Source of the DNA: Dehalococcoidaceae bacterium
GTDB taxonomy: Bacteria; Chloroflexota; Dehalococcoidia; Dehalococcoidales; CSSed11-197
Reading direction: 5' to 3'
Assembly (NCBI GenBank): GCA_016928015.1
Contig: JAFGLQ010000041.1
Coordinates: 1-56,679 of the forward strand
DNA length: 56,679 nt
This document shows, piece after piece, positions 7,604-21,024 of this stretch (position 1 is the first letter of the stretch; each line of letters begins with the position of its first letter). The position numbers and the translations under genes were made by a program. The notes under the pieces are model-generated. The model made no database searches and was not told where the DNA came from. It worked only from the letters and a program-made list of their open reading frames with translations.

Positions 7604-8299
7604 TTGTTACGAATTATTAGAGAAATAACCCTGGAAGTGCTCCAGGCTATTTTACCCCTCACTCTTGGAGTCATCGCCATTAATTTCATGTTCATCCGCA
7701 TGCCAACCCAGGTGTTCGTGCAGTTTATCTTCGGGGCGGTGATGGTAATCGGAGGCATGATTTTATTCCTGCTGGGTGTGCGGTTGGGCATATTGCCCAT
7801 GGGGGAAGCTATCGGTTCTGAATTGCCGAAACGCCGGTTTGTTCCGTATATCCTGGCGGTGGCTTTTCTGCTGGGATTTTCAGTAACGGTGGCTGAACCG
7901 GATGTAATGGTCCTTTCAGACCAGGTAAACACGGTTTCCGGTGGCAGTATATCCAACACGCTGCTGGTGGGCGTTATAGCTGTAGGGGTCGGTTTTTTCG
8001 TTGCGGCGGCTATTTTGCGGATCGTACTGGGTTTTCCGATTACCTATATGCTGGCGGCAGGTTATGCCGCGATTATAATACTTTCGTTTTTTACCCCTCC
8101 CCAGTTTGTTCCGGTGGCGTTTGATGCCGGAGGTGTTACCACGGGGCCGGTCACCGTACCGGTAATTCTGGCTCTCGGGATCGGTTTCAGTTCGGTTCTT
8201 GCCGGCCGTTCTACGCTGGGGGACGGCTTCGGGCTTATCGGGCTGGCTTCCATCGGCCCGGTTATCGGAGTGATGCTAATGGGGGTAATCCTCTATTGA
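7604..8299 (+). CDS. DUF1538 family integral membrane protein (paralog 1)
   Basis: 231 aa, polytopic. Shares motif blocks with the next gene (AEPDV.VL / GEPAVRVL; FDAGGVTTGPVTVP / FDSGGVATGPMAVT; DGFGLIGLASIGPV / DGFGLISLIALAPI). TTG start 4 nt after AGGAGG. Confidence 0.7.
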   Translation: MLRIIREITLEVLQAILPLTLGVIAINFMFIRMPTQVFVQFIFGAVMVIGGMILFLLGVRLGILPMGEAIGSELPKRRFVPYILAVAFLLGFSVTVAEPDVMVLSDQVNTVSGGSISNTLLVGVIAVGVGFFVAAAILRIVLGFPITYMLAAGYAAIIILSFFTPPQFVPVAFDAGGVTTGPVTVPVILALGIGFSSVLAGRSTLGDGFGLIGLASIGPVIGVMLMGVILY

Positions 8300-9919: not shown

Positions 9920-11068
9920 CTAAAGCCGCCCTAGATTCAAGGAAGCAAACTCCGTCCAGAGGTAGTTGAGCGGCGTCCACCAATTCTCCCGGCCGATGCA
10001 GCGGAAATAGGGCGGTTCGAATGCCCGGATTATATCGCCTATGCGATAGCGCGCCAGTATGGGAGTTGAAACCACCAGGCTGCCGTTCTCACCGGGTTTC
10101 ATTTCATGCAGCATTTTGGTCTTGCCGCCGGTGATAACCTCAAAGAAAAACAGGTCGTAGTTGGGCACCCAGGCCCGTTTTACGTCCATTTGCTGGCCGA
10201 ACATGCCTTCGGTGGCACCGTAAATTTCCCGGATAACGGCCTCGGAACCGTAATAGTCTCTGAGCGCCGGGGCATACCGCGTATTGATGCCCGCAACACT
10301 GCCCAGGGTCAGTATTTTCACCTTCCACAGTTCTTTGGGATAGATGCCGTGTTTGGATTTCAGGTGACGGGCAAAAAGGGATGCGGTGGGAGCTACACCG
10401 CCTACCAGTGTCACGTTTTCGTTTTTGCACTTTTCATAGGCCAGTTCGAAGCGCCTCTCCCAGTCATTGAGCGTTTTGCCGCCGCCCAGCGCATCGATTT
10501 CCTCCTGGGTGGGTAAGGATCGGATGGGGGTGCCGGTAGAGACGTATTTTACGTAGATGCCCGAGCTGTACCCGTATTCAAGTTCCCTTTCGCCTGCCTT
10601 TATCTTGCCGACCACGGAAGGGAAGTTGAGGTTGAGATTTACCCCGCCCAGCAGGCCGAAGTCCCGGGTGGAAGCCACGTAATTGAGCATGGCTCTGCCG
10701 GCGCACAGGCGCATGTCGATATCGGTTTGCGTCATGGGGATGAACTTGGGTTCGTTTTTTGTGGTGCCCCGGGTGATTGCCCAGCCCAGGGGTTCTTCAT
10801 AAAGCATCAACCCGGTGTCCCCTTCCATCACCTTCTGGATCAGGGGGTAGTATTTCTCGTAGGTCATGACCGGGAAGCTGCGGCGGTAATCCTCGACGGA
10901 AGCAATACCGTCTGCATTATACAGCCGCCCGTAAGCTGTCCTGGCATAACCTTTGAGCAGGTCCTGGAGTACCTTTTGCTGAGCGGAGGCAGGATCGGCG
11001 ATGGACTGATACCATGGAGCGAGGAAGCCTTCAAGGCGTTTTAACATTTCGGGGTTAACTTCAATCAT
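9920..11068 (-). CDS. GH3-like adenylate-forming (acyl acid amido synthetase superfamily) protein, short form
   Basis: 382 aa. N-terminal pattern QQKVLQDLLKGYARTAYGRLY...SVEDYRRSFPVMTYEKYYPLIQKVMEGD...ITRGTTKNEPKFIPMT matches the GH3 family signature (GTT..pKfIP). Confidence 0.5.
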   Translation of the reverse strand: MIEVNPEMLKRLEGFLAPWYQSIADPASAQQKVLQDLLKGYARTAYGRLYNADGIASVEDYRRSFPVMTYEKYYPLIQKVMEGDTGLMLYEEPLGWAITRGTTKNEPKFIPMTQTDIDMRLCAGRAMLNYVASTRDFGLLGGVNLNLNFPSVVGKIKAGERELEYGYSSGIYVKYVSTGTPIRSLPTQEEIDALGGGKTLNDWERRFELAYEKCKNENVTLVGGVAPTASLFARHLKSKHGIYPKELWKVKILTLGSVAGINTRYAPALRDYYGSEAVIREIYGATEGMFGQQMDVKRAWVPNYDLFFFEVITGGKTKMLHEMKPGENGSLVVSTPILARYRIGDIIRAFEPPYFRCIGRENWWTPLNYLWTEFASLNLGRL

Positions 11069-11172
11069 GCCAGCCTCCTGTTTATAAGCTGGTTTATACT
11101 AATACAGCCGGGGAGGGTATTTCAAATAATTGGGTGCACACAATCTGAAACGGGCAATTATCAGGCCTGTTG

Positions 11173-11201
11173 TTGTCCAAAGAAGCCGGCTTGGGTATAA
11201 T
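11173..11201 (+). promoter_or_regulatory. sigma70-type promoter for tRNA-Arg
   Basis: TTGTCC (11173-11178), a 17-nt spacer, then TATAAT (11196-11201). The tRNA 5' end lies 15 nt downstream. Confidence 0.55.
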
Positions 11202-11215
11202 TATGAGGTTCGCGT

Positions 11216-11291
11216 GCCCCAGTAGCTCAGTGGATAGAGCAGCGGTTTCCTAAACCGCGTGTCGTGAGTTCGACTCTCACCTGGGGTACCA
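11216..11291 (+). tRNA. tRNA-Arg (anticodon CCU), CCA encoded
   Basis: Manual cloverleaf: acceptor GCCCCAG/CTGGGGT, D arm GCTC-AGTGGATA-GAGC, anticodon arm GCGGT-TTCCTAA-ACCGC, variable GTGTC, T arm GTGAG-TTCGACT-CTCAC, discriminator A, then CCA. Confidence 0.9.
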
Positions 11292-11292
11292 C

Positions 11293-11790
11293 TTACTGCC
11301 AGTAGTTGTACCAGAACATGGAAATGGTGGTATCGTAGCCCGGGTAATCACTGCCTTCGTAGATGTCGATAGTTACCGCATCCATTCCCATCGAGAGCTG
11401 AAGTTTGGTTGCTTCGGGGTTGGTAAAAACGTCCCAACCCAGAGGCTTTAGCTCTGACATGTAGTATTCAAAGACCTGCTGAGGGCTTGCCGGTATCACG
11501 TACCAGGCATATATTCCCGGCACTCACTCCGGGGCTTCGATGAAATCGATTCTAACCGTGCCCGGGAATAGAGGCACCGCTTCATGGTCAACGCCGACCC
11601 CCACTTCACTGCCCGGGACTCGCGCCAGTTCGGTTGGAACCGGACACAGGGTTTCAGCGCCTGCTCCATCAGGATTCAGCCCTGCATCAATTTCAACCAT
11701 GACGCCGGCGGTACACCCGTTCAACAATAGCTGACCGGCGAGTATAAATATTATTACCAGGAGTTTCGGAAAGGTTTGGTTATTCACCAC
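11293..11790 (-). pseudogene. lipoprotein gene interrupted by a single in-frame TGA (pseudogene, recoding or sequence error)
   Basis: The ORFs 11524-11790 (signal peptide plus lipobox LLNGC) and 11293-11523 are in the same frame, separated only by the TGA at 11524-11526. Read through, the motif VPLFPGTVRIDFIEAPE-*-VPGIYAWYVIPASPQQVFEYYMSELKPLGWDV forms one continuous domain pattern (PLxPG ... Y.....s...v..fY...l...GW) common in small lipoproteins. Confidence 0.5.
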
Positions 11791-11920
11791 TATCTCATCC
11801 TCCTCCGCTCATTATTAAGCTTGAATCCGTAACATATAACTGATACTGGCTATCAGTACTGCTATTATTTTACCAGATTCGGCGTATTATTGAAAATCGT
11901 ATACGACTGGAGGACCAGCA

Positions 11921-12640
11921 CTAATTGCCGGGAACGATCTGTCCCCTGGCGGAGATGGTGATTTCCTTCAGGGGCAGGTTTTTACCGGCCAGAGCCATGG
12001 CCTTTTTAACCATATATGTTAGCCCCGAACAGCATGGCACTTCCATTTTTACCACGGTGATACTTTTTGGGCTCGACTGGCGCAGTATATCAGTCAGTTT
12101 TTTAAAATGAGCATCGTAATCATCCAGCTTGGGGCAGGCAACCAGCACGGCACGGTTGTGGATAAAATCCCGGTGGAAATTGGAGTAGGCAAAAGGCGCG
12201 CAGTCTGCAGCAAGCAGTATATCGGCATCATTTAAAAATGATGCTGCCGGCGGCACAAGGGCAAGCTGTACCGGCCAGTGGGTCAGCATGGAGGAACTTT
12301 CCGCCGGCTCTACAGCCGGGGCAGCCTGTTTATCGAACAATTTCATTAAGGCCGAAGGACACCCAACCGGTTGGGGTTCGGTGCCTTCTTCTTTACTAAG
12401 ATGGTTTTTTACAGCCTGTTCATCGAATTCAGCCGCTACCCGTTCTTCGATGGTGATGGCTCCCCTGGGGCATTCGCCCAGGCAGGCACCCAACCCGTCA
12501 CAGTATACTTCGCTGACCAGCCTGGCCTTACCGTCAATGATCTGCAGGGCACCTTCAGCGCACGACGGCACGCACGCGCCGCAGCCGTCACATTTTTCTT
12601 CGTCGATTCTAATAATCTTGCGCCTGATTTTTTCAGCCAT
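11921..12640 (-). CDS. 4Fe-4S dicluster domain protein with Cys-containing C-terminal domain
   Basis: 239 aa. Two ferredoxin-type motifs (CDGCGACVPSC and CDGLGACLGECP). The C-terminal domain has conserved Cys residues (ADCAPF, VACPKLDD, VPCCSG). Confidence 0.75.
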   Translation of the reverse strand: MAEKIRRKIIRIDEEKCDGCGACVPSCAEGALQIIDGKARLVSEVYCDGLGACLGECPRGAITIEERVAAEFDEQAVKNHLSKEEGTEPQPVGCPSALMKLFDKQAAPAVEPAESSSMLTHWPVQLALVPPAASFLNDADILLAADCAPFAYSNFHRDFIHNRAVLVACPKLDDYDAHFKKLTDILRQSSPKSITVVKMEVPCCSGLTYMVKKAMALAGKNLPLKEITISARGQIVPGN

Positions 12641-12665
12641 GGTTTACTCCCTGCATTAATTCGGG

Positions 12666-13454
12666 TTAGTTATCCGGCAACCTGCGGGAAATCCGGGACA
12701 GTTCATCTTTACCCTGGTCATTCAAGCCCAGCAGGTCGATTTGGGCCTGCAAACCTGCCCGGGTGCCGTTGCCGCCCGCGAACCCATTAACTCTTGCCGC
12801 GGCGGTAGAATTGACCAGCCGGCTGGTTTGGGGGTAGATAGCGGCGTATTCAGCCGCAAGCAAAGAGTTCTGCCTGAGGTAGTATTTCTGATGGTAGTCC
12901 TCGGCAAGGTAGAATGCTCGATACGGGGCTATCTCGGTATAAACCTTGCGGCCCAGTTTTCTTTCCTGCTCCTGCATGGACGCGACGGCTTTAAGCCGCT
13001 GCTGTTCATTATGATAGAAAATTACAGATTTGTACTGTGTGGTTTTTCGAAGCGAAGGGTCATGGCCGGCCCAGAATATTTCCAAAAGTGCCGGGTAGGA
13101 AATGACAGCCGGGTCATAGTCCAGTTGGACTGTTTCGGTATGGTCTGCCAGGTTCAAGTATGTCGGGTCAAGGGTAGTGCCTCCGGCATAACCGACCCGT
13201 GTTCGTACAACTCCTTCAATGCTCCCGAAACGGGAATCAGGCCCCCAGAATCAGCCCAGGGCGAAGGTGGCTGTTTCAATTCGGGCCGGGACGGTCGAGT
13301 CTAAAACGGGCAAAGTTCCGTTCAAGTTTTCCATATCACCTGCTCCAATATCAATATTACCTCCCCGGCTGCAGGCGGGCAGTATCCATCCCGTAACGGC
13401 AACCAGGGCAATCAGGCAGAAAAACAGGCGGCTTGTTTTTCTTGCGCATCTCAC
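12666..13454 (-). CDS. msrA: peptide-methionine (S)-S-oxide reductase MsrA, predicted selenoprotein (UGA = Sec at the catalytic position)
   Basis: ORFs 13251-13454 and 12666-13157 plus the 93 nt between them form one frame. The translation reads ...IETATFALG-[TGA]-FWGPDSRFGSIEGVVRTRVGYAGGTTLDPTYLNLADHTETVQLDYDP...YKSVIFYHNEQQ...FYLAEDYHQKY, a full MsrA. The TGA occupies the Cys of the canonical GCFWG active site. Alternative start at the ATG at 13334, preceded by GGAGCAGGTGAT. Confidence 0.8.
13220..13239 (-). promoter_or_regulatory. candidate SECIS-like hairpin downstream of the msrA UGA
   Basis: The mRNA segment UUCCCG-UUU-CGGGAG forms a 6-bp stem (one G-U pair), extendable by G-C and U-A pairs with one bulged A. 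Its apex lies 24-26 nt after the UGA, within the distance range reported for bacterial SECIS elements. It was not validated with a covariance or SECIS model. Confidence 0.35.
13251..13253 (-). other. in-frame UGA, predicted selenocysteine codon of msrA
   Basis: Plus-strand tca is TGA on the minus strand. It is flanked by codons for G and FWG of the MsrA active-site motif. Confidence 0.75.
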
Positions 13455-13457
13455 CTT

Positions 13458-13868
13458 TTACCCCGTTTCATCACCCGAAGGGGAAAAATCCAGGGCAAGG
13501 GAATTGATGCAATAGCGCTGTCCGGTGGGCGCCGGCCCGTCCGGAAAGACATGCCCCAGGTGAGCGCCGCATTTACTGCATATCACTTCGGTCCTGGTTC
13601 TGCCGTGGCTGAAATCCGGCTCCGTATCAACGCTGGTGTCAGAAACCGGGGCATAGAAGCTGGGCCAGCCGGAACCCGAATCGTACTTGGTCGAGGAAGC
13701 GAATAACCGGTTGCCGCAGCAGACACAGCCGAAACTGCCTTTCTCGTGGAAGTCATAATATTTGCCGGTAAACGGCGCTTCGGTGCCTTTTCTGCGGGTG
13801 ATGTCAAATTGTTCCGGGGTAAGCCGGTTTTGCCATTCCTGTTCAGGTTTATCAATTTCATACATCAC
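13458..13868 (-). CDS. msrB: peptide-methionine (R)-S-oxide reductase MsrB
   Basis: 136 aa. Zn-site CxxC pairs (CVCCG, CSKCG), then GWPSF, and [10 protein letters not shown]...RYCINS with a catalytic Cys. Confidence 0.9.
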
Positions 13869-16854: not shown

Positions 16855-17769
16855 TTAACCCAGTTCTATCATGCGCTCGACCGCTTGCAGCGCCCGGCCC
16901 CTGATACCATCTGCTACTTTAACCTCTCCAGCCATATGCTGTAAAGAGGCAAGGACATTGTCCAGGCGGATTAGCTGCATATTTTTACATTTGGCTTTAT
17001 CTGAAGCGGCAATGAAGGTATTGGAGGGGCTCTCTTTTCGCAGCCGGTACAGCATGCCGGCATCTGTTGCCACAATTATTTCATTGCCCCGCGATTGGCG
17101 GCAGTAGCGTACCATACCGCCGGTACTGAGTACTTCATCGGCCAGCGCCAGCACTTCCAGCCGGCATTCCGGGTGGGCTATTACCACGGCCTCGGGGTGC
17201 TCATCTTTGCGTTTAAGAATATGTTCCGGCATGATGCCGGCATGGACCGGGCAGTAACCCGGCCAGAATTTAATATTTTTACCTGTTTGGGATTGTACGT
17301 AGGCGCCGAGGTGCTGATCCGGTACGAAAAGTATATCGTTAGTGTCCAGGCTGTCGACTATCTTGACGGCATTGGCTGAAGTACAGCATATGTCGGAGAG
17401 GGCTTTGACGGCGGCTGTTGAGTTTACATAAGTAACGACGGTATAGCCCGGCAACTCCTTCTTGCGGGCGTCGAGTTCTTCAGCAGTAACCATATCGGCC
17501 ATCGGGCAGCCTGCATCGGGGACCGGCAAGAGAACAGTCTTGTGAGGCGAAAGGATGGAAGCGGTTTCGGCCATGAAGTGAACTCCGCAGAACACGATTA
17601 CTTCTGCGCCGGTGCTGGCGGCCAGACGGCTGAGTTCCAGAGAGTCGCCGACAAAATCGGCAATCTCGTGGATTTCCGGCCGCTGGTAGTTGTGTACCAG
17701 TATTACCGCTTGCCTCTGCTCCTTGAGAAGGTTGATCTTTCTGACAATATCGGATTTGGGCTCGATCAT
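16855..17769 (-). CDS. nadA: quinolinate synthase
   Basis: 304 aa from the internal ATG. NadA-like sequence begins at MIEPKSDIVRKINLLKEQRQAVILVHNYQ. Conserved Cys residues are present for the 4Fe-4S cluster. The ATG overlaps the fdhD TGA (ATGA). Confidence 0.85.
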   Translation of the reverse strand: MIEPKSDIVRKINLLKEQRQAVILVHNYQRPEIHEIADFVGDSLELSRLAASTGAEVIVFCGVHFMAETASILSPHKTVLLPVPDAGCPMADMVTAEELDARKKELPGYTVVTYVNSTAAVKALSDICCTSANAVKIVDSLDTNDILFVPDQHLGAYVQSQTGKNIKFWPGYCPVHAGIMPEHILKRKDEHPEAVVIAHPECRLEVLALADEVLSTGGMVRYCRQSRGNEIIVATDAGMLYRLRKESPSNTFIAASDKAKCKNMQLIRLDNVLASLQHMAGEVKVADGIRGRALQAVERMIELG

Positions 17770-18536
17770 GTGTTTATTCTCCAGTGATGGGTATAGCTTG
17801 TTACGGCGCCTTCTTTGGAACACCTTAACAGGGTTATGCCGGTTTTTTCCGCCAGTTCGATGCCCGTATCGGTCGGCACCGCTTTGGTCAACAGTATGGG
17901 AACCCGCCTCAGAGCCACTTTCAGCAGCATTTCGGAAGACACACGCCCGGAAAGGATTACCAGGTGTTTCCCGGTATCGATGCCCGAAACCAGGCACTGG
18001 CCGAATACCTTGTCCAGAGCGTTGTGGCGGCCGATATCATCTTTGAAAACCATGATCTTTTCCGGACTGGCCAGCGCAGAACTGTGCACTCCGCGAGTAG
18101 TAATGTATGTCGGTGAAGCATTGAGAAACAGGTTCATCAACCGTGACGCCTGGGCTGCCGTCAAGCAGGTTTGTGTGTCTGTGACCGGCATAAGCCCCTT
18201 GCGTTCGAAGGATTTTCCCTTACCGCCGCCGGTGGCGATTAACGGCTTGAAGGACGGCGGGGCCTCGACCGTTGCAAACGTTTCAACTTCGGCAGTCTGG
18301 TTAGGGGTATCAACGGTGATGCTTTTTATATCCTCATACTGCCGGATCAACCCCTCGGAAAAAAGTATACCCAGCACCAGGTGTTCCAGGTCCGCCGGTG
18401 TGCAAAGAGTAGTAACCAGTTCGGCACCATTAAGCCGGATGCTGAGAGCGAACTCGCAGCACACCGTTTCATCTACCCGGCGGCTGCCCTCAGGGCCGTG
18501 CCTGAAAGCCGAAACTTGTATTGTTTTACTGTTCAA
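17766..18536 (-). CDS. fdhD: formate dehydrogenase accessory sulfurtransferase FdhD
   Basis: 256 aa. Contains EFALSIRLNG, DLEHLVLGILFSEGLI, RGVHSSAL, DIGRHNALDK and LSGRVSSEMLLKVA. Confidence 0.85.
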   Translation of the reverse strand: MNSKTIQVSAFRHGPEGSRRVDETVCCEFALSIRLNGAELVTTLCTPADLEHLVLGILFSEGLIRQYEDIKSITVDTPNQTAEVETFATVEAPPSFKPLIATGGGKGKSFERKGLMPVTDTQTCLTAAQASRLMNLFLNASPTYITTRGVHSSALASPEKIMVFKDDIGRHNALDKVFGQCLVSGIDTGKHLVILSGRVSSEMLLKVALRRVPILLTKAVPTDTGIELAEKTGITLLRCSKEGAVTSYTHHWRINT

Positions 18537-18553
18537 ATTCTTCTTGCCGTCAG

Positions 18554-19609
18554 TTAAAATTTACCTTCCAGCGCATTGTAAAACGCCCGCCAGAACGGGT
18601 CAACAATGGGGTGAACCAGGCTGGTTTCCCTGCCTTGCCTGACCAGGACCATGCCGTCTTCCGGACCGGTCATCTCGCCGGCAATCGAGGCAAGGATCCC
18701 CCTGGCGTTGAGGACACTGACAACCTCTTCGGCTTTGTGCGGCCGGCAAAGCACGATAAGGGTGCCCTCTGAAATGGAAGCGTAAGGGTCGATTTTGAAA
18801 AACCGGCAGATCTCATTTACAGTGTCTTCCACCACGATTTTTTCAAGTTCCACCCTGACTCCCAGCCCGGCGGCTTCAGCCAGTTCGTAAAGCCCGCCCC
18901 AGATACCGCATTCAGTGGCATCGTGCATGGCGCTGACGCCTTCGTCCCGGACGCCGACGGTTATGGCGGCCAGAGCATCTTCTACCGTGGTCATCTTATA
19001 AAATACACCTTCGGCCTTTTGACGGAACTCAGAGCCGAACTCTGTTTCGATTATAGCCGGAAACATGGCGGCAAATATACCAACGGCTTCTATTGCCGGC
19101 CCCTTGGAAATGATGACCTTGTCACCTTTGCGGGCGAACCTGGGAGTAACGTATTCATCCAAACCGCCTACACCGATAACAGTAGCCCCGCCAACCATGG
19201 GATAATGGCAGTTTTCATATCTGCCGGTATGGCCGGTGATGATATTGATGCCAAGGTTTTCACATTCGCGGTGCATGGCGTCCCACATGATGGTGAGTTC
19301 ACGTTTGGTCATATTCATGGGAAGGTTGAGGTCTATGCTCAAGTACCTGGGCTTGAGACCGGATGTAGCCGAGTCCGAGGCCAGGATATTGATGGCAAAC
19401 CAGGCTGCCCTTTCCCACCCGTATTCAGGTACGATAAACACCGGGTCGGTGGTGAACGATACCGCCATATTGCCGATTTCGGCAATGCCTACATCTGTAC
19501 CGTGTTTCGGGCCTACCAGCACATCCTTATTCTTTGCCCCCAGGCGAGGGAATATGATTTCGCTGAATATGTCAGCTGAAACCTTGCCTATTTCGGGTAT
19601 TTCTGCCAT
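18554..19609 (-). CDS. AIR synthase-related protein (PurM/HypE/ThiL/SelD superfamily), function unknown
   Basis: 351 aa. PurM-type N-domain (GTDVGIAEIGNMAVSFTTDPVF...AINILASDSATSGLKP) and C-domain (GDKVIISKG). It lacks the SelD N-terminal Cys/Sec-Lys loop and the HypE C-terminal Cys. Confidence 0.7.
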   Translation of the reverse strand: MAEIPEIGKVSADIFSEIIFPRLGAKNKDVLVGPKHGTDVGIAEIGNMAVSFTTDPVFIVPEYGWERAAWFAINILASDSATSGLKPRYLSIDLNLPMNMTKRELTIMWDAMHRECENLGINIITGHTGRYENCHYPMVGGATVIGVGGLDEYVTPRFARKGDKVIISKGPAIEAVGIFAAMFPAIIETEFGSEFRQKAEGVFYKMTTVEDALAAITVGVRDEGVSAMHDATECGIWGGLYELAEAAGLGVRVELEKIVVEDTVNEICRFFKIDPYASISEGTLIVLCRPHKAEEVVSVLNARGILASIAGEMTGPEDGMVLVRQGRETSLVHPIVDPFWRAFYNALEGKF

Positions 19610-19699
19610 TGGTAAATCATTCTCCTCTCATATTGGTTTGAATAATACAGCCGCCCCGCTGAAAAAGCCAGCAGAAGCGGCCGGCTGGAAGTCTATGCG

Positions 19700-20896
19700 C
19701 TAGGACTGTGCCTTTTTTTCGGCTCGCAGGCGGGCGACAAGCTTGGGCAATTCCTCCAGGGTTTTATCAATATCGGCATCGGTGGTCCATTTTCCCAGCG
19801 AAAAACGCAGGGCTCCCTGGGCTTGTTCTACACTGCGGCCCAGGGCCATCAGCACATGGGAAGGAGTAACGCCGGCGGCGGTGCAGGCTGCTCCGGCGCT
19901 GGCACAGATACCGTGCTTGTTGAGTTCCCAGCTCATGGAGAAATAATCCTCCGGTTTTTCCTTTGGACCGTGTTTTTCGATAGCCACCCCGTCGAAACAG
20001 AAGTTGGCATTATTGGGCAGGCGGTTTGCCGTATCGCCGTTTAGAACGACACCTTCGATATTCTGCATTACCCCGTTTATCAGCCTGTCCCTTAGCGGCT
20101 TGAGGCGCTGGATTTCGGCGTCCATATCCCTGCTGGCTACCTGGGCGGCTTTGCCGAATCCCACGATGAGCGGTACCGATTCGGTTCCGGAGCGGATACC
20201 CCTCTCCTGACCGCCGCCGTAAATTATGGGGGCAATTTGAGAACCCTGCCGTATATAAAGGGCTCCGATGCCTTTTGGACCGTAGAATTTGTGAGCCGTC
20301 AGCGACAGCATATCCACTCCGAGTTCTTTGACATCGATACGGGACCGGCCGATAGCCTGAACAGCATCGGTATGGCAGTAGATGCCGTATTCCAGGGCGA
20401 TGCCGGCAATTTCCTTGACCGGTTGAATTGTGCCGATTTCGTTGTTGGCGAAAATAGTAGAGATGAGTATGGTATCGTCGGTTATCGCCTGGCGGATTTT
20501 TTCGACATCCACGATACCGTTGGGTTCGACCGGTACAAAAGTAACTGAAAAACCGTTTTTCTCCAGATGGTGACAGGTTTCGAATACGGCATGGTGTTCA
20601 ATGTTGGTCACTACGATATGGTTGCCCAAGTCTTTGGAAACAGCCGCGGTTCCCATGAGCGCCAGGTTATCGGCCTCGGTGCCACCGCTGGTGAAAATTA
20701 TCTCCTCGACACCGGCGTTGATAAGTTCGGCTACCCGGGCACGGGCTTGCTCAACCGCCAGGCGGGCCTCCTTGCCCTTTTCATGGATGGAAGAAGCATT
20801 GCCGTATTTCTCGATAAAGTAAGGCAGCATGGTTTCCATGACTTCAGGGTGCACCGGGGTGGTGGCGGAATAATCAAGATAAACCGGTTTTTCCAT
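19700..20896 (-). CDS. nifS: cysteine desulfurase (NifS/IscS class I)
   Basis: 398 aa from the ATG at 20896 (AAGGAGG 8 nt upstream). Contains VYLDYSATTP, a PLP-Lys region SLTAHKFYGPKGIGALY, and the active-site loop SAGAACTA. Confidence 0.85.
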   Translation of the reverse strand: MEKPVYLDYSATTPVHPEVMETMLPYFIEKYGNASSIHEKGKEARLAVEQARARVAELINAGVEEIIFTSGGTEADNLALMGTAAVSKDLGNHIVVTNIEHHAVFETCHHLEKNGFSVTFVPVEPNGIVDVEKIRQAITDDTILISTIFANNEIGTIQPVKEIAGIALEYGIYCHTDAVQAIGRSRIDVKELGVDMLSLTAHKFYGPKGIGALYIRQGSQIAPIIYGGGQERGIRSGTESVPLIVGFGKAAQVASRDMDAEIQRLKPLRDRLINGVMQNIEGVVLNGDTANRLPNNANFCFDGVAIEKHGPKEKPEDYFSMSWELNKHGICASAGAACTAAGVTPSHVLMALGRSVEQAQGALRFSLGKWTTDADIDKTLEELPKLVARLRAEKKAQS

Positions 20897-21024
20897 ACCC
20901 ATTTCCTCCTTGCGCCGGCTGGTGCTGCTGGACGGCTGTAGCCGGTTCCAGGTTGAGTAAATGTTATATTTCAGGCCCGGGTTTGTCAATCAGAAGAGCT
21001 TGTTGCTGAGTGAGGCCGTACTGG

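Follow-up and report, generated by a model that had tools for sequence, protein, structure and literature searches.

Is the TGA codon that interrupts the gene for methionine sulfoxide reductase A (msrA) in a Dehalococcoidaceae bacterium a stop, or is it read as selenocysteine (Sec, U)? The gene lies on the minus strand of a 56,679-nt stretch of metagenome-assembled DNA (GenBank assembly GCA_016928015.1, contig JAFGLQ010000041.1, positions 1 to 56,679), the whole of which is referred to below as the window. The AlaRS encoded on it is MBN1369221.1 (100% identity), filed in GenBank under Dehalococcoidaceae bacterium. A single frame of the minus strand holds an open reading frame (ORF) of 67 amino acids (aa) with a GTG start (13251..13454), a second ORF of 163 aa (12666..13157), and the 93 nt between them (13158-13250), and the sole codon breaking the frame from 12666 to 13454 is the TGA at 13251-13253. 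This frame analysis agrees with the initial annotation, in which the two ORFs and the intervening 93 nt had been joined into one frame with a single TGA. The results presented here make it very probable that the msrA UGA is read as selenocysteine, with incorporation of the residue and dependence on SelB predicted from sequence comparison.

An in-frame TGA at the catalytic position of MsrA

The read-through translation of msrA has 262 aa (...IETATFALG-U-FWGPDSRFGSIEGVVRTRVGYAGG...HTETVQLDYDP...). With C in place of U, it matches Pfam PMSR (PF01625) with 143.8 bits against a cut-off of 23.7 (E-value 6.5e-42), and the match covers residues 61-196 and positions 1-148 of the 153 in the profile. Among solved structures, the best matches are seven chains that represent a single protein (4U66, 4LWJ, 7C13, 4LWK-M, and 4W8C; E ~3e-58). 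Of these, 4LWJ is a Cys variant of CoMsrA, the MsrA of Clostridium (Alkaliphilus) oremlandii OhILAs, which natively contains Sec (Lee et al. 2015, PMC4333827; see also Kim et al. 2009). In the phmmer alignment, query residues 58-248 are matched to CoMsrA chain residues 6-197, and an estimate by eye puts the identity over these 191 residues at about 55%. U68, His188, and Tyr191 correspond to Cys16, His137, and Tyr140, respectively. The active-site motif is present as G67-U68-F-W-G, with the nucleophile in second place. The initial annotation had equated the TGA with the catalytic Cys and regarded the locus as a Sec/Cys pair; the alignment bears out the former, and the existence of Cys homologues of the Sec msrA is in keeping with the latter.

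There is no Cys after U68 in the window MsrA, and its sole Cys residues (3, 13, and 28) are in the signal peptide or lipobox. It is therefore an MsrA of the 1-Cys (here 1-Sec) type. A C-terminal helical domain has been described for CoMsrA (residues 145-209; PMC4333827), and the corresponding region of the window protein aligns with it, while Pfam MsrA_helical (PF20939) was not reported for the window MsrA at E ≤ 0.001 and was recorded only for close relatives, e.g. P0003. From the alignment of U68 and the His and Tyr residues, the lack of any later Cys, and the aligned helical domain, the window MsrA is therefore of the same enzyme type as CoMsrA. It is very likely that the gene is a functional selenoprotein gene of this type, with one catalytic residue, no resolving Cys, and a helical domain. 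Methionine-S-sulfoxide reductase activity may be predicted for its product by homology with CoMsrA.

The two enzymes share Sec at the GCFWG nucleophile, the absence of any other Cys from the mature enzyme, the catalytic and helical domains, and the His137/Tyr140 pair. The Sec form of CoMsrA is 20-fold more active than its Cys form, and is recycled by glutaredoxin and not by thioredoxin (PMC4333827). In contrast to CoMsrA, which is a cytoplasmic Clostridium protein of 209 aa with Sec at position 16, the window MsrA belongs to a Chloroflexota (Dehalococcoidaceae) metagenome-assembled genome (MAG) and is extended at the N-terminus by 67 residues that include a lipoprotein-type signal, so that its Sec is residue 68. 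Moreover, CoMsrA is recycled by (seleno)glutaredoxin, whereas no grx gene is adjacent to the window msrA, and the position predicted for the enzyme outside the cytoplasm would require another reductant.

Conservation of the TGA and of the codons beyond it

The closest proteins were searched for in a collection of 5.8 billion sequences, and contigs L001-L006 came from independent JGI metagenomes and Logan assemblies. The four closest proteins are gene calls of 163-181 aa that start past the TGA. Contigs L001-L006 have the gene order of the window (accC, msrB, msrA, the Fer4/AF_0155 gene, two small ORFs, and tRNA-Arg), and every one of them, representing three diverged orthologue groups, has TGA at the homologous msrA codon. 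Over the part past the TGA, the encoded proteins are identical to that of the window at 85% of residues in L001, 76% in L006, and 69% in L003. In addition, Logan contig L247 (run SRR13394437) is 100% identical to positions 11265-13269 of the window (2005 bp), TGA included.

The codons past the msrA TGA are under purifying selection. The ratio of non-synonymous to synonymous substitution rates (dN/dS) downstream of the TGA is 0.22 against L001, 0.27 against L003, and 0.12 against L006, and the frame is open for 194 codons past the UGA. The stretch of 31 codons that leads from the TGA to the next in-frame ATG, GTG, or TTG (segment FWGPDSRFGS...DPTY) shows hardly any variation, and ETATFALG, directly before the UGA, is also conserved. 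The conservation of the TGA in relatives, the identical Logan contig, and the low downstream dN/dS therefore argue strongly against truncation of the product, loss of function as a pseudogene, or an error in the sequence.

A SECIS-like hairpin downstream of the TGA

In the transcript just past the UGA, folding yields a hairpin (Table 1) whose core stem pairs 13231-13236 with 13222-13227 (U.G, U-A, C-G, C-G, C-G, and G-C) around a UUU loop at 13228-13230. The loop occupies nt 24-26 counting from the U of UGA, which is where the initial annotation had put the apex of a hairpin. The stem is extended by the pairs U13239-A13220 and G13238-C13221, with A13237 bulged, and the base of the core stem is U.G in the window where relatives have C-G. 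The hairpin has a local energy of -7.7 kcal/mol, which is marginal, and the minimum free energy (MFE) of the 50-nt region with the lower helix is -11.2 kcal/mol. It resembles the bacterial selenocysteine insertion sequence (bSECIS) of the Escherichia coli fdhF type in lying inside the coding region just past the UGA and in having a single bulged base beneath an upper stem of 5-6 bp. In the portion of PMC13188914 that summarises Zhang and Gladyshev (2005), the bSECIS consensus is given as a loop of 3-9 nt, a stem of 4-16 bp, a G in the first two loop positions, a spacing of 16-37 nt, and an MFE ≤ -7.5 kcal/mol. The window hairpin falls within these ranges in its spacing (19-20 nt), stem (6 bp and 2 further pairs), loop length (3 nt), and energy (-7.7 kcal/mol).

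The hairpin was compared in a gapless alignment of 124 distinct TGA-msrA sequences, which include the listed matches from GTDB (see below) and in which column 1 is the U of UGA; 111 distinct TGY (Cys) msrA sequences, obtained by scanning metagenomes with the same pattern, served as the control. In the TGA-msrA alignment, 80.6% of the cells in the hairpin columns (16-23/27-34) are paired. Two-sided changes are found in 80 cells, compared with 32 ± 3.6 in shuffles (none of 500 shuffles reaches 80), and all slid controls are worse than the hairpin columns. Covariation is seen at pair 19/31 (U-A in 54 sequences, G-C in 35), at pair 23/27 (G-C in 82, A-U in 20), and at pair 18/32 (C-G in 72, U-A in 16).

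The pairing differs sharply between the Sec and the Cys forms. At least five of the six core pairs are formed in 85% of the Sec forms versus 2% of the Cys forms, and all six in 60% versus 1%. The mean MFE of the hairpin is -10.75 kcal/mol in the former and -4.0 kcal/mol in the latter, and the contrast stands also for Cys forms that are rich in G+C at third codon positions. The sequence that forms the hairpin also encodes D-S/A-R/Q-F-G, and the pairing is preserved through synonymous choices. Thus the Gly codon of the 3' arm ends in G in 111 of the 124 Sec forms versus 11 of the 111 Cys forms (Fisher 3e-38); no preference for a final G is seen at two control Gly codons. A G at column 23 goes with a C at column 27 by 82 to 0 in the Sec forms, and by 14 to 12 in the Cys forms. 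The Sec-only pairing and the synonymous-site bias thus indicate that selection acts on the hairpin in TGA genes only, which is what a SelB-binding element would lead one to expect. These comparisons support the view that the downstream hairpin acts as a SECIS across the TGA-msrA genes, presumably by binding SelB. The suggestion of the initial annotation that the hairpin could be a SECIS has therefore gained from the comparative pairing and its specificity for Sec forms, while the UUU loop of the window is off the family norm and the stability is marginal.

The genetic code of the organism

TGA is the ordinary stop of nine of the 37 other, confidently annotated genes on the contig, e.g. fdhD (17766..18536) and the first DUF1538 gene (7604..8299), and profiles are matched over their full length by large genes, e.g. 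alaS, clpB, and trkA. The organism therefore uses the standard code and recodes UGA locally, as the initial annotation had argued from fdhD and the DUF1538 gene. When the window was scanned for long same-frame segment pairs split by one TGA, about 50 pairs were obtained, mostly noise in non-coding frames. Only in msrA does a recognisable domain extend across the stop, and the other genuine case is the TGA at 11524-11526, in the gene at 11293-11790 described below. This second UGA-recoded gene, together with the selenoprotein-rich Dehalococcoidia in BSepDB, where some MAGs of this class are listed with 46-49 selenoproteins (PMC13326102), indirectly supports Sec decoding in this organism.

One candidate for selD was considered and rejected. 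It is an AIRS/AIRS_C protein (18554..19609) beside a NifS-like desulfurase, which scores 46 bits by NCBIfam against the SelD cut-off of 125; its best match, HypE, is also under the cut-off, and the frame upstream lacks a GxGC/UK-type extension. By NCBIfam the protein is not SelD, HypE, or ThiL (46-86 bits against cut-offs of 125-252). It forms part of a trio on the minus strand (17766-20989) with a NifS-type cysteine desulfurase (19700..20989) and FdhD (17766..18536), which is kept in L001 and L003 and may, as a prediction only, be a sulfur- or selenium-handling module.

Points against the Sec reading and alternative explanations

Several observations weigh against reading the UGA as Sec. Neither selA, selB, and selD nor tRNA-Sec is found on this 56.7-kb contig: ARAGORN and Rfam detect tRNA-Arg(CCT) only, and NCBIfam detects no SelA and no SelB among 20 large ORFs. 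There is also no tRNA-Sec in thirteen related loci. The folding energy of the window sequence is no better than that of shuffles (z = 0.30 over 83 nt, and 0.57 over 50 nt); alone, the window hairpin is thus indistinguishable from shuffles, and the evidence for it is comparative. Rfam gives no match, even at E ≤ 10 on 13150-13300, and the RNAalifold consensus of the 124 sequences is another weak fold in invariant columns (-2.16 kcal/mol) without covariation. A GUU loop, with G as its first base, is found in 117 of the 124 family members, whereas the MFE loop of the window is UUU; G leads it (GUUUC), in keeping with the bSECIS consensus, only if the closing pair G13231-C13227 opens, at a cost of 1.2 kcal/mol. 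The opened conformer has -6.5 kcal/mol locally and -10.0 kcal/mol with the lower helix. The UUU loop stems from a synonymous CGG to CGU change, and it is common to the sister lineages L001, L003, and L006 and arises independently in a Nitrospiraceae MAG (L121) and a Synergistales MAG (L101); therefore, it is tolerated in nature. Finally, upstream of the TGA the dN/dS is about 0.8-1.1; this does not in itself indicate that the region is translated, although such values are expected for a signal peptide and linker.

Four other explanations of the locus may be considered. Since the window belongs to a metagenome-assembled genome, the TGA might be a sequencing or assembly error for TGC or TGT; however, the identical 2005 bp in the Logan contig from SRR13394437 include the TGA, which is found also in L001-L006 from other samples, and the chance of such an error is practically negligible. 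A nonsense mutation in an ordinary Cys-type msrA would have made it a pseudogene. GenBank in effect treats the gene in this manner, with a truncated product of 184 aa, and the contig carries no Sec machinery; but three orthologue groups, at 69-85% aa identity past this codon, and at least 120 other genomes retain the TGA, the frame remains open for its 194 codons with a dN/dS of 0.12-0.27, and a hairpin under synonymous-site selection accompanies the codon only when it is TGA. A pseudogene is thus extremely unlikely.

It is very unlikely that the locus instead encodes two products, a 67-aa secreted peptide and a truncated MsrA-like protein starting from TTG 13157 or ATT 13220, which is how ORF finders and GenBank call msrA. 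A protein starting past the UGA would be without the nucleophile and the GCFWG helix, and FWGPDSRFGS...DPTY is among the best-conserved parts of the protein; ETATFALG is conserved too. The UGA might also be read through without Sec, by near-cognate insertion of Trp or Cys or by reassignment of UGA to sense. Some gene calls do give W at this position (GWFWG in P0012 and P0017), the SECIS loop is atypical, and Sec machinery is seen nowhere on the contig. On the other side, the W calls evidently represent TGA under another translation table, as in P0243/L249, and Trp at the nucleophile would kill the enzyme. Codes 4 and 25 are excluded, as TGA ends nine of the 37 genes and no other gene with a recognisable domain is split by TGA, and the hairpin strictly accompanies TGA, as recruitment of SelB would predict. 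Non-Sec readthrough is therefore very unlikely.

If the UGA is read as Sec, the hairpin 15-34 nt downstream of it would be bound by SelB-GTP-Sec-tRNA(Sec), and SelB would bring Sec to this codon (13251-13253), competing with release factor 2, after which the ribosome would proceed 194 codons past the UGA. By homology with CoMsrA, the U68 selenolate would attack methionine-S-sulfoxide in oxidised proteins and release methionine. Since there is no internal Cys, recycling of the resulting selenenic acid would fall to an external reductant, a thiol or a selenol. The frame with its codon, the homology, the retained TGA, purifying selection past it, and a Sec-specific RNA hairpin are seen in the sequences themselves; SelB dependence, selenium incorporation, export (discussed below), and the identity of the reductant are inferred.

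Table 1. Positions of the features of the msrA locus in the window
Feature	Position	Strand	Remarks
msrA coding sequence (CDS) read through UGA	12666..13454	minus	262 codons and TAA stop; GTG start 13452-13454
In-frame TGA, predicted Sec codon, residue 68	13251..13253	minus	GCFWG nucleophile; aligns with catalytic Cys16 of CoMsrA
bSECIS upper hairpin (candidate)	13220..13239	minus	folding; covariation in 124 Sec-msrA; absent from Cys forms
Putative lower helix, includes GA of UGA	13209..13252	minus	13247-13252 with 13209-13214; 3 of 6 pairs G.U; weak
MsrA catalytic domain, residues 61-196	12867..13274	minus	GUFWG and conserved His188, Tyr191
C-terminal helical domain, residues 197-248	12711..12866	minus	aligns with CoMsrA residues 145-197 (phmmer)
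Predicted lipoprotein signal peptide	13371..13454	minus	MRCARKTSR, then hydrophobic core LFFCLIALVAVTGWI, then LPA-C28
Alternative start Met41	13332..13334	minus	GGAG upstream, 8-nt spacer; aligns with sister-lineage starts
GenBank CDS MBN1369198.1, 184 aa	12666..13220	minus	start ATT 13218-13220
msrB, 136 aa, Cys form, no signal peptide	13458..13868	minus	SelR 2.8e-50, TIGR00357; directly upstream of msrA
Second UGA-recoded lipoprotein gene (predicted), 165 aa	11293..11790	minus	TGA 11524-11526, 1.7 kb from the msrA TGA; hairpin 11489-11508

The N-terminus and possible export of MsrA

The N-terminal segment has a 15-residue Kyte-Doolittle maximum of 2.57. Compared with L001, its hydrophobic core and lipobox are kept (one conservative and two synonymous changes in 21 codons), and the linker after them is highly variable. 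Cys homologues from related MAGs have classic lipoboxes (ILPGC, ILTGC, and LAGAC) at the equivalent place. The Pro at position -2 of the window lipobox is unusual, yet the homologue P0004 has ILPGC. The Cys lipoprotein MsrA proteins of Dehalococcoidia/Chloroflexota (e.g. P0004, P0006, P0010, and P0029; ~50-56% identity over 85-99% of the query) have the architecture of the window MsrA, i.e. a lipoprotein signal peptide, a linker, a catalytic domain, and a helical domain. They differ from it in carrying TGY at the nucleophile, and the Cys forms as a class are without the downstream hairpin. It is moderately probable, judging from these motifs, that the precursor carries a lipoprotein signal, with cleavage and lipidation at Cys28, which would place the enzyme on the outward side of the membrane.

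The orthologues in L003 (9857-10546) and L006 (2986-3654) have no counterpart of the signal segment (13332-13454 in the window), and start at a Met aligned to Met41 of the window protein. As these close orthologues are without a signal peptide, export therefore seems to have been recently gained or lost in the clade, or dual initiation is possible; initiation at Met41 is the alternative that would produce a cytoplasmic form of MsrA. Among the matches listed in the census below, a strongly hydrophobic 15-mer lies upstream of U in 67 of the 120 Sec-MsrA with a complete upstream frame. Since this is more than half of the listed Sec forms, many of them may be exported or membrane-anchored.

Neighbouring genes and a second UGA-recoded gene

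The GTG start of msrA is 3 nt past the stop codon of msrB, and the two genes are probably translationally coupled. The same msrB-msrA order is found in L001-L006. A search of an assembly index for exact copies of the window MsrB gave no record.

The second recoded gene consists of two ORFs, one of 88 aa with the lipobox LLLNGC (11524..11790) and one of 76 aa (11293..11523), which are in one frame and are split only by the TGA. A word-index homology search with the product of 11293-11790 gave no match. An exhaustive HMMER search detected single-chain homologues that span the junction at 11524-11526, with the TGA aligned to the second Cys of a C-x-C motif. In seven TGA members from five lineages, the stop is always TGA and the frame runs for about 76 more codons; five of the seven have a non-start codon directly after the TGA. 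The hairpin of this gene, CUGGUA[CGUGA]UACCRG, has GU in the loop 23 nt past the UGA, and its U.G pair is replaced by U-A in three members. Member L249, whose protein is 34% identical, is identical to the window in the 27 nt that follow the TGA, from which the hairpin is formed, and over the eight codons past the TGA the window and L003 differ by three synonymous and no non-synonymous changes.

The AlphaFold model of the product is a single domain with a mean predicted local distance difference test (pLDDT) score of 81.7, exceeding 90 for most of residues 70-160, and places Sec in a turn between two strands. There is no Foldseek match to this model in the PDB at E ≤ 0.001, and no Pfam or NCBIfam model for the product, nor does it correspond to any family model that a 2026 review cites in its table. 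On this evidence, the gene is likely to represent a true selenoprotein family that has not been listed before.

A gene for a protein of 239 aa (11921-12640, minus strand) separates the two recoded genes. Its product has a 2x[4Fe-4S] ferredoxin domain (Fer4) at the N-terminus and an AF_0155-type Cys-rich domain at the C-terminus. The gene is present at the same place in L001, L003-L006, and L247, and a redox link of its product to msrA or to the lipoprotein is possible. A Cys-form member of the second family adjoins genes for DsbD_2, Thioredoxin_3, and rhodanese. By analogy, the conserved four-gene cluster of msrB, msrA(U), the Fer4/AF_0155 gene, and lipoprotein(U) might be envisaged as an extracytoplasmic, Sec-based relay for methionine repair, in which the 165-aa lipoprotein would recycle an anchored Sec-MsrA. 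Such a relay may be likened to the 'tandem use of selenocysteine' in C. oremlandii, in which a Sec-glutaredoxin reduces Sec-MsrA; other members of the lipoprotein family have C-x-C where this one has U, and Cys forms lie beside DsbD/CcdA-like and thioredoxin genes. The relay is nevertheless speculative and on balance improbable, and the functional coupling of lipoprotein(U) to MsrA is much less certain than its status as a selenoprotein.

The sister lineage (L003:12023-14366, L004, and L005; AlaRS 89% identical) has a tyrosine integrase gene and small helix-turn-helix and zinc-finger genes after tRNA-Arg(CCT), an insertion that looks like an integrated element. The window (9920-11291) and L001 have a GH3-family gene at this site instead.

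Distribution of Sec-MsrA

One genome per GTDB species was scanned for the pattern G-TGA-FWGP[DE]xxFG, which was found in at least 120 genomes. All 120 of the listed matches are msrA genes with TGA at the nucleophile, and the genome of the window itself is not among them. The phyla among the matches listed are Chloroflexota, Planctomycetota, Desulfobacterota, Bacillota, Actinomycetota, Acidobacteriota, Nitrospirota, Verrucomicrobiota, Synergistota, Myxococcota, and others, and the listed Bacillota include cultured Desulforamulus and several alkaliphilic Bacillaceae. The window gene so belongs to a known, widely distributed family. The Sec-MsrA of Chlamydomonas probably represents an independent acquisition of Sec. 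MsrA of Chlamydomonas reinhardtii likewise has Sec for the catalytic Cys (PMC9404770, PMC13188914). It differs from the window protein in being eukaryotic, with the SECIS in the 3' untranslated region and the SBP2/eEFSec machinery.

The initial annotation had described Sec-MsrA as rare and confined to a few organisms. This view must be given up in the light of at least 120 species-representative genomes in many phyla, and of the 2026 review, which lists MsrA among the experimentally verified bacterial selenoproteins. Sec-MsrA is thus already characterised, the C. oremlandii enzyme having been expressed, assayed, and crystallised, and widespread, and the window gene brings no new principle.

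Some of the Sec-MsrA frames are over-long. Those in L068, L060, and L122 run 292-366 codons past U, and 242-510 in-frame codons precede U in L054, L033, and L068. They may be fusions, e.g. with MsrB, whose C-terminus is resembled by the frame upstream in L054.

Consequences for annotation

What is new at this locus is the wrong GenBank annotation and the undescribed second UGA-recoded gene nearby; the probable lipoprotein export and the loop variant are also worth recording. MBN1369198.1 starts at an ATT past the UGA (Table 1), and is therefore without the whole GUFWG active-site segment. The nearest public gene calls (P0001-P0003 and P0019) are truncated in the same way. Other calls show W at the Sec position, i.e. 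GWFWG in MsrA (P0012 and P0017) and PPEWD in the second family (P0243). For P0243, to which the check on DNA was confined, the W is a Sec TGA (L249:689-1075), and evidently such entries reflect gene callers that apply a table with TGA as Trp. Entries of this kind hide selenoproteins in protein databases.

For the enzyme itself, possible export means that some partner outside the cytoplasm would have to reduce a 1-Sec MsrA. For the family, the census yields a family-specific SECIS model with which msrA may be re-annotated in at least 120 species-level genomes of many phyla. For the organism and its relatives, the truncated or W-bearing msrA annotations mean that the functional repertoire and the selenoproteome of these Dehalococcoidaceae are under-called.

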